A DNA stretch of 64,000 nucleotides from Candidatus Poribacteria bacterium (GCA_965205025.1 CBDBFU010000014.1:196041-260040), one strand, 5' to 3'. Shown: positions 1,984 to 64,000, counted from the stretch's first letter. Made by a program: numbers and translations. The notes: a model not told the origin generated them from the sequence alone.

Positions 1984-2338
1984 TTAGTTTGTGATCTTAC
2001 TCCTTCCCCTCTCCAAACACTCTTATCCGCGTAATCTGTGTAATCTGTGATGCAGACAACTCAAACATACATAAAAATAAACTAATCTCACAAAATTGAC
2101 ACCAAAGGTGACAATTATTTACACACCCGATCGCGCAGGGTGTGAAAGTATATGACATTAACAAGAAATAAAGGAAACCAATCAAAGAAAAAAAATGAAG
2201 AAAACACCAATCTCTTACAACTAATATACATATATCACAAAAACAGAAAAACATATTAATAATATTTGTAAAAATGAAAATAACGGTGTATAATATTATA
2301 TCGTTCAATATTTATAAACTAAAACTAATACCATTTCA

Positions 2339-2445
2339 AATTGAAAATGTCTCTTTTTTGTACCACAAACTTTCAGTTTGTGACTTGAAAAATGACTAAC
2401 ATAATAACCGCCTAATGAGACAATAATTTATAGAAATGGTATAAC
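2339..2445. repeat. about 105-bp dispersed direct repeat, copy 1 (contains family-A hairpin CACAAACTTTCAGTTTGTG)
   Basis: About 95% identical to 3448-3551 by eye alignment: 'AATTGAAAATGTCTCTTTTTTGTACCACAAACTTTCAGTTTGTGACTTGAAAAATGACTAACATAATAACCGCCTAATGAGACAATAATTTATAGAAATGGTA'. Confidence 0.7.
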
Positions 2446-3447
2446 ACTGTAAATAAGGATATAAGGCGGAAAGATAACAACACAAACTAACAACCAATAA
2501 CTAAAAACTATGAACTATAAGCTAATGACTCTCTATAAAGACGATCCTAATAACGAAGTTTCATATACGTCAAAAAAACATACCTTTTTAACCGTTGGGA
2601 ATCACAAAATCAGGAAGCACAACAATAACACAAAATCACAATTTTTCGAATTTCTTATAAAGTCAATTCAAAGTGGGATAAAGTCAGTCTATGACAGGGG
2701 TTATAGGGATAATTTACACCAATTTCAATGTCACACAGTGTGACAAAAAGTGTAACTTTTTTCATGTTTTCGATGCATAGAGAATGCAACAACAACATGA
2801 TCTACTGTCTGAGTATTTAGGATTAAATGTCTGGTTTTATACACTGTTTTTTGTCTGCATATTAGGATTAAATGTCTGGTTTTATGCATTTTAAACAATC
2901 ATAAATATAAGTTATTAAAGAATGTTCTCAAGACCAATATATGCCAATTATATACAAAGCCTAAAAGTAAAATAATGTCTCAATGATACCGATCAAATAC
3001 GTGAAATATGTGTAATTGGAGTTTTCTATATCAAGAATCCCTTACTCCAGAGGGGTACTATGTGTCTATAGAAAACAATATCGGAACAGTCTGGCACTCC
3101 AGCGGAGTGCTATGTCCCAATACACTTCGTATGAAAAACATATAAGTACTTAATACACACTTAAGTTATAGTTTAGTTAACGTATGTGATTCACGGAGAA
3201 TTGGTCTACTTTAAATTATAAACCCTTATAGAATAAGGCTTCGTAAAATTGCTCCGTGAAGGTTTCCGTGAAAGTGCAATCATCTCAAAACGATAAATAT
3301 TAACACTTTTGCCATTCACAATAGCCATACATCTAATATAATTATGAGATTGACAGATTACCTCCCAATAAATGATTGACAATGGCTAATATTAGATGTA
3401 ATAATTACGATACATTGTGGATGTGATGTTTATATTATACGATTTCT

Positions 3448-3551
3448 AATTGAAAATGTCTCTTTTTTGTACCACAAACTTTCAGTTTGTGACCTGAAAA
3501 ATGACTACCATAATAACCGTCTAATGAGACAATAATTTATAGAAATAGTAT
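3448..3551. repeat. about 105-bp dispersed direct repeat, copy 2
   Basis: Same sequence as 2339-2445 with about 5 substitutions; lies immediately upstream of the ThuA-like gene. Confidence 0.7.
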
Positions 3552-3590
3552 TAGATAGTAATTTTCTACATGAAAACCTTAAGGAGTTTT

Positions 3591-5417: not shown

Positions 5418-5439
5418 CCACAAACTTTCCAGTTTGTGG
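5418..5439. repeat. family-A hairpin CCACAAACTTTCCAGTTTGTGG (REP-like; probable terminator of the upstream gene)
   Basis: Perfect 9-bp stem; same unit as 2364-2382, 3474-3492 and 63875-63901; preceded by a second hairpin TTCAAGAAC...TTCTTGAA. Confidence 0.6.
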
Positions 5440-11541: not shown

Positions 11542-12172
11542 GGTGTGTATAGAATTATATACCATAGGCGTCAATTTAGGAGAAAAAATGTTGTATCCCA
11601 GACCGGTAGGTGCGGTTTCCCAACCGCACTATTGGGCCTCAATTTTAGACTATGACTTTATTGGTTTTGAGTCCCGGGGAATGCCTAAATGGCATTCATA
11701 CCGTTGATTTGGTAGGGACGGAATGTCTATAGAAAAAGGATCAATTAACAAAATGAGTCCCGTAGGGACGGAATGTCTATAGAAGTGGTTATCACCAATA
11801 TCCCAAGCCCCGGTGAATGCCATAAGGCATTCATACCCGGTGAACGCCAAAAGGCGTTCATACCGTTGATTCCTTGATTCGCGGGGCGAAAGGTGTGTAG
11901 AAAACGTATAAACACAAAACACTAAGCCCCGGTGAATGACTAATGAAGATTAACTAAATATTTCGGTAATTCTAATTTTCCCAAACCCGGTAGGTGCGGT
12001 TTCCTAACCGCACTGGATCTTTCTCCAAAATTACCGAATTTAAAAATTAATCTTCATATGTCATTCATACCCGGTGAACGCCAAAAGGCGTTCATACCGT
12101 TGATTCCTTGATTCGCGGGGCGAAAGGTGTATCCCTAAATTGACGCCTATGGTGTGTATAGAATTATATACC
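11542..12172. mobile_element. composite non-autonomous element: 17-bp perfect TIRs (ATAGGCGTCAATTTAGG / CCTAAATTGACGCCTAT) enclosing nested palindromic units, flanked by a perfect 22-bp direct repeat GGTGTGTATAGAATTATATACC
   Basis: Direct repeat at 11542-11563 and 12151-12172; TIRs at 11564-11580 and 12134-12150. The interior holds hairpin families C (GGTGCGGTTTCC.AACCGCAC), D (GAATGCC..A..GGCATTC + ATACCGTTGATT), E (GTCCCGTAGGGAC + GGAATGTCTATAGAA) and F (GCCCCAGCGGGGC + GAAATGTGTGTAGAAAAC), plus a 114-bp family-B MITE (11944-12057) inserted inside a D hairpin that is itself inside an F hairpin. Confidence 0.6.
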
Positions 12173-56629: not shown

Positions 56630-57150
56630 CTCGTCCCGGTAGGTGCGGTTTCATGTAGATTAAGAAAATATTTCGGTAATTCTAATTTTCCCAAACACGG
56701 TAGGTGCGGTTTCCCGGGGAATGCCTTATGGCATTCATACCGTTGATTCACCACGGGGAATGCTAAATAGCATTCATACCGTTGATTTGGATCTTTCTTT
56801 AAAATTACAGAATTTAAAAATTAATCTACATCTAACCGCACTATTAGCGTCAATTTTAGACTATGATTTTATTGGTATTGAGTCCCATAGGGACGGAATG
56901 TTTATAGAAAATGTGTATATCCCATAATTGAGTCCCGGGGAATGCCTAAATGGCATTCATACCCGGTGAACGCCAAAAGGCGTTCAACCGTTGATTCCTT
57001 GATTTGGTAGGGACGGAATGTATATAGAAGTCGTTATCAGCTAATATCCTAAGCCCCAGCGGGGCGAAATGTTTGTAGAAAACGGTTAAACCCACTAACA
57101 AAGCCCCAGCGGGGCGAAATGTGTATCCTGAAATTGATGCTTATGGTTTG
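56630..57150. repeat. cluster of nested palindromic units (C, B-MITE 56653-56830, D, E, F1-19nt-F2 composite)
   Basis: The family-C hairpin 'CCGGTAGGTGCGGTTTC | CTAACCGCACT' is split by a 178-bp B-MITE (TIR ATGTAGATTAAG / CTTAATCTACAT) that itself carries two D-type hairpins. Further downstream are E units (GTCCCATAGGGACGGAATGT) and AAGCCCCAGCGGGGCGAAATGT..TAGAAAAC + 18 nt + AAGCCCCAGCGGGGCGAAATGTGTATCC. Confidence 0.65.
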
Positions 57151-58974: not shown

Positions 58975-59143
58975 TATAATCTAATGTATAACGGAAACCC
59001 ACACTAATACAAACTCACCCAATTCAATTTTAGTCAATCTCCATAGAAAGAATCGGTATTCATCAATTTTAGTAAATTTATGAATTTATCAATGTAACTA
59101 TAAGAGTTCTTAAACTGTTAATTACGATAACTTATCTTGTATC

Positions 59144-59172
59144 TTGACAATTGCAAATCTGAGTGTTATACT
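59144..59172 (+). promoter_or_regulatory. near-consensus sigma-70 promoter (TTGACA - 17 bp - TATACT) driving the MTase gene
   Basis: TTGACA at 59144-59149, exact 17-bp spacer, TATACT at 59167-59172. The first ATG of the track ORF (59137) lies upstream of this promoter, so translation more likely starts at ATG 59230 (AGGA 7 nt upstream). Confidence 0.6.
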
Positions 59173-59229
59173 CACTTTGTCCAAGAAAAATCCTTCCAAA
59201 ACTATCCTAATTTCATAGTAGGACTTAAA

Positions 59230-60655
59230 ATGTTGCTAAATCTCAAACAAGCAAGTCAATGGGCATCAGACTATCTGAATAAATCCGTCACCACAGCTAA
59301 CATCACTTATCTAATTCAATACGGAAAGATTGACACTATTTCCAATAATGGATCTAAACTAATTCCTTTAGATAGTCTTAAAGAATATTATAGTCAATAT
59401 TGTCGAGAAATGCGTTGGAAAAACGAACTCGGTGAAGACCTTAATTGGGAATTATCTTTCGAAAAATATAAGGAAGCAGAGACTACTAAACATGTCCACC
59501 GTCTACATCCATATAAAGGTAAATTTATACCTCAGTTGGTAGAATATTTTTTAGATCAACATACAGACAACTTTAAGAATGATATATATTTCCAACCAGG
59601 GGATGTTGTGCTTGATCCATTTTGTGGAAGTGGAACAACCTTAGTCCAAGCAAATGAATTAGGTTTACACGCGATAGGCATAGACATTTCTGTTTTTAAT
59701 TCATTCATTAGTAATGCAAAAGTTGAGAATTTCAACCTAACGAAATTGTATGAGGAATCAAAAAAAATAACATCCGCTCTTAAAGTAAAAGTGGCATCCT
59801 CAAATATAGTTGATTTTGATACTAAACTATCCGATATCTTGACAAAATTTAATAATGAGTATTTTCCAATATCCTTCAAAAAACGAGTCAGGAATGGTGA
59901 AATTAATCAAAAGAAATATGGAGCAGAAAAAGAAGCTGCATTTTTAAATACATATCAAAAACTTATAACAGAGTTTGAAATTGATATTCAAATGCCCACT
60001 GATTCAGCACGCTTTATGAAAAAATGGTATCTTCCACGGGTAAAAGCAGAGATAGAATTTGTCTATAATGAAATATGTAAGGTGGAAGATATATCTATAA
60101 AAAACGCTCTAATGCTTATTCTAAGTCGTACTATTCGTTCATGTAGAGCAACAACCCACGCAGATTTAGGCACATTACGGAATCCAGTTACCACAACTTA
60201 CTTTTGTAGAAAACATGGTAAAGTTTGTAAACCACTTTTTTTCAATTTTAGGTTGGTGGGAACGGTATTGTAAGGATAGTATTGAACGATGGAATGAATA
60301 TGGAAAGTTAAAGACGGATACACATCAATATTGTTTAACTGGGGATTCTCGTACAATAAACATCCTAACCATGTTAGAACAGACTAATAAGAAATTAGCA
60401 GAAATTGTTCAGAATAGACGAATAAAAGGTATTTTTACAAGTCCACCTTATGTTGGTTTGATTAATTACCACGAACAACATGCTTATGCTTATGATCTTT
60501 TTGGATTTAAAAGGTTAGACGAATTAGAGATTGGACCTCTCTTTAAAGGAAAGGGTAAAGATGCAAGAGAATCTTATGTCCAAGGTGTCTCAGAAGTTCT
60601 TAGGAACTGTAAACGATTCTTAGCAGATGATTATAATGTCTTTATCGTAGCCTAA
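59230..60655 (+). CDS. alpha-class DNA methyltransferase (N6A or N4C; motif I DPFCGSGTT ... motif IV SPPY), interrupted by a +1 frameshift at a T7 homopolymer (60236-60242)
   Basis: Track ORFs 59137..60273 and 60215..60655 are two frames of one gene. The second frame is open from 60170 and contains 'TSPPYVGLINY'. The only overlap region contains TTTTTTT, and one T fewer (T6) would fuse the frames. This is either phase variation, a sequencing indel, or a recent pseudogene. Confidence 0.6.
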
Positions 60656-62529: not shown

Positions 62530-63321
62530 CTAATGACCCTCAAGTGCCTTTCGAAGACCATCACCGTGCTCACGCCACCATCCATATAAGATTGAAATAT
62601 CTGTTCCTATACAGAAATGTCTTACACCCATATCGAGAAATCGTTTTGCCCCATCAGCACTACCAATTTCCGCACGAGGGGGTACACCCATCTCTAAAGC
62701 TGTTTTAAATACTTTCATCTCTGTATCTTGGATTTCTTGTGAACCCCGCTGACCTACCTTCCCAATACTCATAGAATAATCTGATCCACCCCACTGAATC
62801 ATATCTACGCCATCAACAGATAACACCTCTTCAAGATTCTCAACTGTTCCTTTCTTCTCAATCATAATGACTACGACAACATCTCTTAAGGCTTGTACGT
62901 ATTCCGGACCACCACCATATCCCATATACGAAAAACGCCTTGTCGCAACACCATAACTACCCCCATCTTCAGGCGTATCTGCTCTTGTTATCTTTACACA
63001 TTCTTTTACATCATCAACATTTTGACAATCCGCATAGAGAACACTTTGGAAACCGGATCCGATAGCGCGTTGAGCAATGAATCCGCGCGGCTCCTGGTCA
63101 ACTTTGATCATTGTTGAAATGTTATGTAGTTCTGCTGCTCTACACAGATTATCCAAATCGTGGAGATCAAAGGGTCCGTATTCTCCTACAAATTCTACAT
63201 AATCATACATTCCTGTATGACCTATGGCTTCAACAATTGAGGGCCATGTCGTATGAATATGTGTTCCGACAGTAGGTTTGTCAGCATTGAGTAATTCTCG
63301 AAAGGTATTTTCTCTCATCAA
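62530..63321 (-). CDS. HpcH/HpaI-family aldolase
   Basis: 263 aa (beta/alpha)8-like; 'MIKVDQEPRGFIAQRAIGSGFQSVLYADC', 'FCIGTDISILYGW'. Family call at moderate confidence. Confidence 0.5.
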   Translation of the reverse strand: MMRENTFRELLNADKPTVGTHIHTTWPSIVEAIGHTGMYDYVEFVGEYGPFDLHDLDNLCRAAELHNISTMIKVDQEPRGFIAQRAIGSGFQSVLYADCQNVDDVKECVKITRADTPEDGGSYGVATRRFSYMGYGGGPEYVQALRDVVVVIMIEKKGTVENLEEVLSVDGVDMIQWGGSDYSMSIGKVGQRGSQEIQDTEMKVFKTALEMGVPPRAEIGSADGAKRFLDMGVRHFCIGTDISILYGWWREHGDGLRKALEGH

Positions 63322-63398
63322 TCTTCCTTTTCTATAATAATACCATTTCTGGTAATTAAAGTCTCATTAATAGAATCTCTTTAATGTAGCACAAACTG

Positions 63399-63741
63399 TA
63401 TGAAGATTAACTTTTTAAATCGGTAATTCTAATTCCACAGACCCGGTATGCGGGGAATGCTAAATAGCATTCATACCGTTGATTTCTTGAGTCCCGTAGG
63501 GACGGAATGTCTATAGCAAAGGTATATATCCACATAATTGAGTCCCGTAGGGACGGAATGTGTATTGAAGTCGTTATCGCCAATATCCTAAGCCCCAGCG
63601 GGGCGAAAGGTGTGTAGAAAACGTACTAAACCACTAAACCTAAGCCCCGGTGAATGCCATAAGGCATTCATACCGTTGATTTGCGGGGCGAAAGGTGTAT
63701 CCTTAACCCGTATAATACCGAATTAATATATTAATCTTCAT
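63399..63741. mobile_element. family-B MITE (TIR TATGAAGATTAAC / TTAATCTTCATTTA) carrying nested D, E, E, F1, F(D-split) units, inserted into a family-A hairpin; the matching empty site is at 63875-63901
   Basis: Flanks 'GTAGCACAAACTG' (63386-63398) and 'GTTTGTGCAG' (63743-63752) are the two halves of the intact hairpin 'GTAGCACAAACTTTCCAGTTTGTGCAC' found 120 bp downstream (63875-63901). Confidence 0.6.
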
Positions 63742-64000
63742 TTAGTTTGTGCAGTATTTCAAGCCATGCATAAAAAATGTTGATGGGATAAACATTTTTA
63801 GAAATGGTATAACGCCAGTTTGATAATAAATATGTCAGCTCGATAAATAGTATTTTGTCCTGAGAATAGTCTTTGTAGCACAAACTTTCCAGTTTGTGCA
63901 CTCTGGTGTAAACTAAAAGTTTGGGTTACAATGTGTCTTATCAAACTCACGTCATAATAATTAAACGATCTACAACTTGTGATAGTAAAAATCTAATGGT

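Follow-up and report, generated by a model that had tools for sequence, protein, structure and literature searches.

A MITE family with IS630-type termini is found at the tips of unrelated DNA hairpins in Candidatus Poribacteria

Short repeats of a family here called B, present in four copies in the 64-kb stretch of Candidatus Poribacteria DNA analysed (the window) and represented by considerably more than 100 ends across 920 kb of related sequence, are with a probability of roughly 85% MITEs of an IS630-family insertion sequence, mobilised in trans, which insert at the tips of hairpins of any sequence and duplicate the middle base of the loop. All four copies in the window split a hairpin and the hairpins belong to three unrelated families. 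Among 108 unique insertions in the window and related loci, 80 (74%) are bordered immediately by a perfect inverted repeat of 7 bp or more, compared with 5 of 1640 (0.3%) random length-matched control positions. The idea that B targets hairpin loops rather than a sequence motif, put forward in a preliminary description of this DNA, is thus borne out, the stems being unrelated to one another.

Hairpins split by B elements in the window

At 63386–63753 an A-family hairpin is divided by a B element of 342 bp (63400–63741), a composite MITE that goes back to an IS630-family insertion sequence. The left half of the hairpin (63386–63399) reads GTAGCACAAACT plus GT, that is, a GTAG tag at 63386–63389, the stem CACAAACT at 63390–63397 and the loop bases GT; the right half (63742–63753) reads TT plus AGTTTGTGCA and consists of the loop bases TT, the stem AGTTTGTG and then CA. 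The stem at 63390–63397 pairs with 63744–63751 across the element, and the T at 63742 repeats the T at 63399, giving a one-nucleotide target duplication. The preliminary description had correctly recognised that the tag and stem of the intact hairpin at 63875–63901 here flank an inserted element with terminal inverted repeats; the length it gave, 343 bp, has to be corrected to 342, and an extra T and TTA do not belong to the terminal repeat. The repeats, ATGAAGATTAA and TTAATCTTCAT, are perfect over 11 of 11 bases and are accompanied by a subterminal inverted motif (TCGGTAAT and ATACCGAA). The termini, ~28 bp, match those of 1241-bp insertion sequences in loci L009, L088 and L114.

The left part of this B copy is like B copies centred on a D hairpin, the right part like a 101-bp subfamily, and the interior holds a pair each of C elements, F hairpins and E hairpins, which would have entered after B had itself inserted. 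One C element (GGGGAATGCTAAATAGCATTCATACCGTTGATTT, 63452–63485, plus strand) is followed by an F hairpin (GAGTCCCGTAGGGACGGAATGT, 63489–63510, plus strand), the same F element again at 63540–63561, an intact E hairpin (CTAAGCCCCAGCGGGGCGAAAGGTGT, 63588–63613, plus strand) and a second E element (63640–63698, plus strand) whose loop is split by the second C element at 63649–63682. The filled A hairpin is in turn the centre of a tentative, G-like outer carrier repeat at 63340–63810, with ends ATACCATTTCT (63340–63350) and AGAAATGGTAT (63800–63810). Folded as single-stranded DNA, the carrier gives -80.5 kcal/mol (z = -8.5) with concentric helices formed, from the outside inwards, by the carrier ends, the A stem, the B terminal repeats and the small hairpins. 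The region around 63400–63741 is a nest of at least five layers. A search of 62800–64000 against Rfam gave no significant match.

A second A hairpin split by B, at 1869–1996, is as the preliminary description had it: GTACCACAAACTTT and TTAGTTTGTGATC flank a 101-bp element (1883–1983) and the loop reads TT/TT, the stroke here and below marking the element. Hairpin splitting is wider than was seen there, being found also at the B copies 11943–12057 and 56653–56831. The first of these, of 115 bp, fills a C-type hairpin at 11931–12071 (GGTGAATGAC TA/AT GTCATTC) that is itself nested in an E element; the second, of 179 bp, fills a GTAG-tagged D hairpin at 56638–56842 (GGTAGGTGCGGTT TC/CT AACCGCAC), of a type that also occurs as an intact copy inside B copy 2. 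Both components are enriched in the window, the A stem CACAAACT occurring 15 times with 3.0 expected and the B terminus, with at most one mismatch, 13 times with 4.4 expected; none of 100 shuffles reached either count. A hairpins proper, in which GTAG or GTAC stands 5' of the CACAAACT stem, number six. Unfilled ones lie at 2364–2382 (3-nt loop TTC), 3473–3491 (TTC) and 5419–5438 (TTCC), as well as at 63875–63901.

The hairpin at 63875–63901 is intact both in sequence and in fold, as had been claimed for it. It reads GTAGCACAAACTTTCCAGTTTGTGCAC, that is, GTAGCACAAACT-TTCC-AGTTTGTGCAC, in which a 9-bp stem closes the 4-nt loop TTCC, and folds as single-stranded DNA with -9.2 kcal/mol (z = -5.8). 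It does not hold up as the empty counterpart of the filled site, since it sits in a separate carrier (63811–63957 as opposed to 63340–63810) and has a TTCC loop where the filled site points to a 3-nt origin of GTT type. This second carrier is a repeat of ~147 bp (H, terminal repeats AGTTTGATAA and TTATCAAACT), with the unfilled hairpin at its centre; a 90% identical copy is found at 2386–2533 of locus L071, beside a different gene. With the two hairpins in distinct carriers, one of them copied elsewhere, the proposed local duplication of the A hairpin also falls. No B-less allele of the exact 63400–63741 locus was found by a 24-mer metagenome scan (0 matches) or by exact-protein look-ups. In orthologous loci, with a 91–94% identical aldolase and conserved gene order, the upstream DNA is free of A, B and both carrier repeats, and by this comparison the nest at 63340–63957 is lineage-specific as a whole; an allele intermediate between the empty ortholog and the full nest was found neither in these loci nor in the metagenome scan.

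The autonomous partner and the geometry of insertion

A scan for the B terminus (ATGNAGATTAA-N9-TCGGTAAT, one genome per species) returned at least 112 loci, nearly all from sponge Candidatus Poribacteria with a few Chloroflexota among the matches listed; the coding parts of the window are 67–81% identical to the Poribacteria loci. A cyanobacterial origin, with B as a small dispersed repeat or as the Nezha MITE of Nostoc, was rejected on the near restriction of the listed terminus matches to Candidatus Poribacteria. In L009 and L088 termini of B type bound a 1241-bp element with a single ORF, and elements of this length with termini equal to those of B are found in L009, L088 and L113–L132. 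The arrangement ATGAAGATTAA-N9-TCGGTAAT stands at both ends of the window B copies and of the 1241-bp elements alike, the first ~28 bp being common to MITEs and insertion sequence at either end. The ORF (L009:2061-3248) scores 174 bits with NCBIfam NF033545 (cut-off 100) and matches Pfam DDE_3 at 1.9e-22, with HTH domains in addition, profiles that identify its predicted product as an IS630-family DDE transposase. Homologues number 652 at E <= 1e-20, almost all of ~384 aa; in the full-length elements only the DDE gene was found and no Y1 (HUH) transposase gene. An initial reading of L009 2046-3432 as a single element was abandoned, as this stretch is really the insertion sequence (2046-3286) plus a separate MITE in a neighbouring hairpin.

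From the termini that it has in common with an element encoding a DDE transposase, B is established as an IS630-derived MITE. The copies, mostly of 101–342 bp, are non-coding and retain only the ~28-bp ends, those that the transposase would bind, and must therefore move in trans. The transposase gene is known from related genomes and was not found in the 64-kb window, so that the mobilisation of the window B copies is something that we infer. Many of the metagenome contigs that carry the transposase measure exactly 1241 bp, as long as the complete insertion sequence. This is expected of a collapsed repeat, assemblers breaking at the element ends, and copy numbers in draft Poribacteria genomes are for this reason probably underestimated. 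Elements with the same termini are also present in Chloroflexota/Anaerolineae genomes (L031, L033, L053, L085 and L106), those of L053 and L085 again in hairpins, which suggests that the family has been transferred between the two phyla.

The 108 unique insertions, 22 of them full-length elements, were obtained by pairing the ends of elements across the window and every locus retrieved, with duplicate sites removed. Where the flanking stem is at least 6 bp, 61 of 83 sites have precisely two unpaired bases on each side between stem and element, and at 59 of these 61 the base to the left of the element equals that to the right (46 of 47 in a first census, with 14 expected). This two-plus-two geometry and the one-nucleotide duplication identify the target as the middle base of a 3-nt loop and show that TA is not duplicated; only 4 of 86 sites can be read as flanked by TA. 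A TA duplication, or a hidden one of 2–3 nt involving the terminal A and T of the element, is contradicted by the flank statistics and by the unfilled loops. The hairpin-tip rule is obeyed by 18 of the 22 full-length copies. Families A, C, D and F are all represented among the filled stems, as are at least 13 sequences that occur once, and relatives of the transposase at only 61–64% identity are associated with another hairpin family, CACCCC TA/AC GGGGTG and AG/GA, of which an unfilled member (CACCCC-TAC-GGGGTG) is found nearby. As far as the flanking sequences go, insertion is independent of the sequence of the stem. The point of insertion coincides with a hairpin loop in most of the 108 sites, so that the other copies agree with those first described; about a quarter have no clear flanking repeat, and some of these look like recombinants between copies.

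The 3-nt target is borne out by the A family. A survey of A hairpins such as had been called for genome-wide was carried out on the sampled loci with loop positions scored, and it yielded 39 filled and 37 unfilled hairpins, numbers in which occupancy is biased because the loci were chosen for carrying the element. Written in one chosen orientation, the unfilled loops are GGAA (10), AAC (9), GGA (5), AAA (5), GAC (3), CGGA (2), GAA (2) and GCC (1). Of the filled sites, 32 of 39 match a 3-nt loop with a one-nucleotide duplication and no site is explicable by a 4-nt loop; a 4-nt loop is thus found in 0 of 39 filled and 12 of 37 unfilled A-type hairpins (Fisher p = 2.4e-4). Insertion into 4-nt loops without duplication was considered for this family and rejected, as GTTT and TTTT are never found unfilled and TTCC is never found filled. 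It is possible at some D-type sites, where TC/CT could equally arise by one-nucleotide duplication or by entry without duplication into the abundant loop TCCT. Because of this ambiguity of XYYZ loops in some hairpin families, the one-nucleotide duplication is argued chiefly from the A family and from the L008/L082 pair described below. The remaining seven filled A sites are irregular (GT/AC, TT/AA and similar) and may be the product expected of recombination between two oppositely oriented filled sites. A possible instance was seen in L133–L140 and L142, which represent one copy of the insertion sequence in several samples and carry GTAG/GTAC-tagged A halves on both sides, with TT/AC and no one-nucleotide duplication. 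L141 has the same right flank and a regular AA/AC, and the comparison fits an inversion or a recombination between two filled hairpins.

Three homologous repeat pairs differ by the element alone. The unfilled L008 (GTCACAAACT-GGA-AGTTTGTGGTAC) corresponds to the filled L082 (GG[B182]GA), the unfilled L101 with a GTC loop to the filled L087 (GT[B101]TT), and the unfilled repeats at 2325–2442 and 3432–3557 of the window, with a GAA loop, to the filled L013 (GG[B115]GA). These pairs demonstrate that the hairpin is older than the insertion and that a loop XYZ becomes XY[B]YZ. The two window repeats, of a family G, are MITE-like, ~120 bp long, with ends ATACCATTTCTA and TAGAAATGGTAT and an A hairpin exactly at the midpoint; the flanks of the L013 insertion, once joined, match them at 92% identity, and they are clearer copies of G than the carrier at 63340–63810. 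From their central hairpins it follows that A hairpins also ride in larger palindromic elements.

Single genomes contain B copies that share 97–99% identity and occupy hairpins of different families. Of four 278-bp copies in OZ244616.1, three are in D-type hairpins and one is in an A-type hairpin; L041 and L066 form another near-identical pair in different families, and L099 and L111, 99% identical, have opposite orientations relative to the GTAG tag. In two cases, P0032 and P0064, an identical transposase protein is encoded at 10 distinct sites per sample. Taken together, 17 of these 20 sites are in hairpins of at least 8 bp, and in P0064 all 10 are in A-type hairpins with the GTAG tag to the left in five and to the right in five. 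Judged by these identities, the family has been mobile recently, its insertions are independent events, and their orientation is without bias.

Mechanism and alternative explanations

The preferred target would be a 3-nt loop XYZ and the product XY[element]YZ. In an extruded cruciform, the phosphodiester that lies 5' of the loop's middle base would be attacked on both strands by the two 3'-OH ends of the element, which would produce the 1-nt stagger. That the stems are unrelated, that loop length matters and that the stagger is so short favours such a structural target over B-form duplex, and the transposase would then read the extruded cruciform or hairpin rather than merely symmetric duplex DNA. 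A stagger of 1 bp is unusual for DDE transposases and counts against the proposed mechanism. To our knowledge a TA target is otherwise universal in the IS630/Tc1-mariner superfamily. That this clade has lost it, with a transposase that reads the shape of the 3-nt-loop tip of extruded hairpins or cruciforms irrespective of sequence and joins the ends 1 nt apart, we regard as about an even bet.

The alternative that fares best, and which we consider less likely but by no means remote, keeps the same element and the same targets and has a transposase dimer read a twofold-symmetric, bendable duplex in place of an extruded hairpin. Mariner transposases are described as bending the target strongly and flipping bases at the symmetric TA (PMC5481204), and DNA transposons as commonly preferring palindromic targets (PMC2577343). 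However, stems without a common sequence leave nothing for a duplex reader to contact, and the difference between 3-nt and 4-nt loops, together with the 1-nt stagger, would suit a loop tip better.

It is far less probable that the hairpin arms belong to the element, in other words that the composites A::B and D::B had a single origin and multiplied thereafter as whole units, for instance through the machinery responsible for spreading A, with no repeated entry into pre-existing hairpins. Flanks such as CACAAACTGT..TTAGTTTGTG do recur in many genomes and some hairpins do ride in larger repeats, as in the G repeats at 2325–2442 and 3432–3557. Such composites are at odds with the near-identical B copies of one genome, among which flank families are mixed (A-type, D-type or unique), with the full-length copies that have an identical transposase in different hairpins, with the at least 13 sites that have one-off stems, and with the unfilled homologues of filled sites.

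Movement of B by a RAYT, by a Y1 transposase of IS200/IS605 type or by another 'peel and paste' single-strand route, as the preliminary description proposed, is hardly credible, even though hairpins are what B enters, the GTAG tag borne by A and D is typical of RAYT substrates (PMC3733652) and a RAYT-like fragment adjoins A-type doublets in L127. The perfect terminal inverted repeats of B are identical to those of an insertion sequence with a DDE transposase, its stems and loops are variable, and it duplicates one nucleotide and enters in both orientations, not 3' of a fixed tetranucleotide. The mixed flanks and the two orientations count at once against a strand-specific single-strand mechanism and against a single amplified composite. 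Of the earlier proposal the structure-directed part therefore stands, and the transposase class does not apply to B.

Equally hard to credit is random or TA-directed insertion with selection sparing only the copies in harmless hairpin loops. In its favour, REP-like hairpins lie between genes and would probably put up with insertions. Against it, the position is exact to the nucleotide (two plus two at 61/83 hairpin sites, middle base duplicated at 59/61), TA-readable sites are just 4/86, intergenic DNA has many other neutral positions, and A hairpins with 4-nt loops are never filled.

Target repeats, known systems and nesting

The preferred reading, trans-mobilised MITEs entering hairpin tips, leaves a place for RAYTs on the side of the target. 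A and D hairpins have GTAG or GTAC immediately 5' of the stem, and a 5' tag of GTAG type is the signature of GTAG-tagged REPs, the substrates of RAYTs (PMC3733652). Inverted doublets of A, of REPIN type, are seen in related genomes. A truncated ORF for a REP-associated tyrosine transposase is present at 698–1130 of L127, with a match to Pfam Y1_Tnp and 70.9 bits for NCBIfam NF047646, below the cut-off of 80. An A-type doublet is translated in frame inside this ORF (~810–870) and another lies at its 3' end, the latter itself split by a full-length IS630-family element. On these features A is a REP-like repeat with a GTAG tag and was probably spread by a RAYT-type transposase, and the fragment that accompanies the A doublets makes it plausible that the earlier RAYT idea fits the target and not B. 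In tag, dispersal and inverted doublets A and D resemble REP/REPIN systems (PMC3733652, PMC3116915), a likeness that concerns the target and in which the link to RAYTs is one truncated gene at 70.9 against 80 bits.

Elements of the IS200/IS605 and RAYT type have no terminal inverted repeats, carry subterminal hairpins, enter strand-specifically 3' of a fixed short sequence and make no duplication. They too, with their small derivatives, use hairpins and single-stranded DNA; B differs in its 11-bp perfect terminal repeats with a subterminal inverted motif, its variable flanks, its duplication and its DDE partner. The nested C elements, on the other hand, are possibly of that kind. They are ~34–37 nt long, of the form CG-GGGAATGCC-loop-GGCATTCATACC-GTTGATTT, asymmetric and without terminal inverted repeats, and lie at 11676–11712, 11812–11885, 12058–12115, 56716–56790, 56937–57008, 63452–63485 and 63649–63682. 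They are inserted after short stretches rich in C: GCCCC where the host is the E hairpin, GTCCC where it is the F hairpin and CATACC where it is another C copy, the last resulting in C-in-C nesting. From this arrangement C looks like a small derivative of IS200/IS605 or RAYT type, and the single-strand mechanism first suggested for B may fit C instead.

Integration at TA is the textbook property of Tc1/mariner/IS630 elements, which are widely used as genetic tools. Bacterial MITEs derived from IS630 include RUP of Streptococcus pneumoniae and the Correia elements of Neisseria (PMC2817692). Like these and the Stowaway/Tc1-mariner MITEs of eukaryotes, B is short and non-coding, keeps the terminal repeats of its partner and relies on the partner's DDE transposase (PMC2817692); like them it is present in many copies, often nested. 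IS630 itself targets NTAN and elements of its type duplicate TA (PMC5678879), whereas B goes to hairpin tips and duplicates a single nucleotide of arbitrary identity. B thus agrees with the IS630 family in protein and terminal repeats and departs from it in having no TA target.

REPs receive insertion sequences of several families: IS1397/ISKpn1 (IS3), ISPpu9, ISPpu10, ISPa11 and IS621 (IS110) and ISRm22 (IS4), and Tobes and Pareja list IS3, IS110, IS4, IS256 and IS5 as REP-targeting families, IS630 being absent (PMC1525189). Insertion within the palindrome is shared with B (4 of 4 window copies, 74% of the 108), but those elements each recognise one REP family by its sequence (PMC1525189), while the B family uses many unrelated hairpins. 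A further comparison is with IS1272 of Staphylococcus, a 'stem-loop replacing', structure-dependent element whose inverted-repeat targets vary in sequence and size and for which cruciforms have been proposed (PMC5678879). It is likewise a DDE insertion sequence with structural targets of any sequence; its transposase is of a different family, and it deletes the stem-loop and makes no duplication where B keeps both arms and duplicates one loop base, so that the route of B comes close to the hypothetical 'pathway c' (PMC5678879). In the limited literature covered we found no report of hairpin-tip targeting or one-nucleotide duplication in the IS630/Tc1-mariner superfamily, nor of MITEs in Poribacteria. 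Hairpin targeting is thus known in other families, and an IS630/Tc1-mariner case with a one-nucleotide duplication appears to be undescribed.

If this reading is right, target choice in the superfamily can switch from sequence to structure, and the B system would offer structural biologists a contrast to the Mos1 'bend, flip and trap' complex. The hairpins of REPs, MITEs and terminators, even those within earlier insertions, would serve as harmless, self-renewing landing pads, and this renewal would account for the deep nesting of elements in Poribacteria genomes. For sponge symbionts it would explain how concentric palindromes fill the intergenic DNA with the genes left intact. Filled and unfilled hairpins would make a simple marker for strain typing, and in annotation the inverted repeats that flank B-type elements should be taken as split target hairpins and not as long terminal repeats of the element.

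Two further features of the window may be recorded. A composite unit of F hairpin, spacer, E hairpin, spacer and second E hairpin, with C in the E loops, occurs three times, at 11700–12130, at 56880–57050 and, within the 342-bp B copy, at 63489–63700. At 59137–60655 overlapping ORFs of 378 and 146 aa correspond to an N6/N4 DNA methyltransferase of 523–526 aa that is encoded by a single gene, adjoining a HinfI-like gene, in the orthologous loci L143, L146 and L147; the window copy seems to contain a frameshift, which would make it a pseudogene or reflect an error of sequencing.
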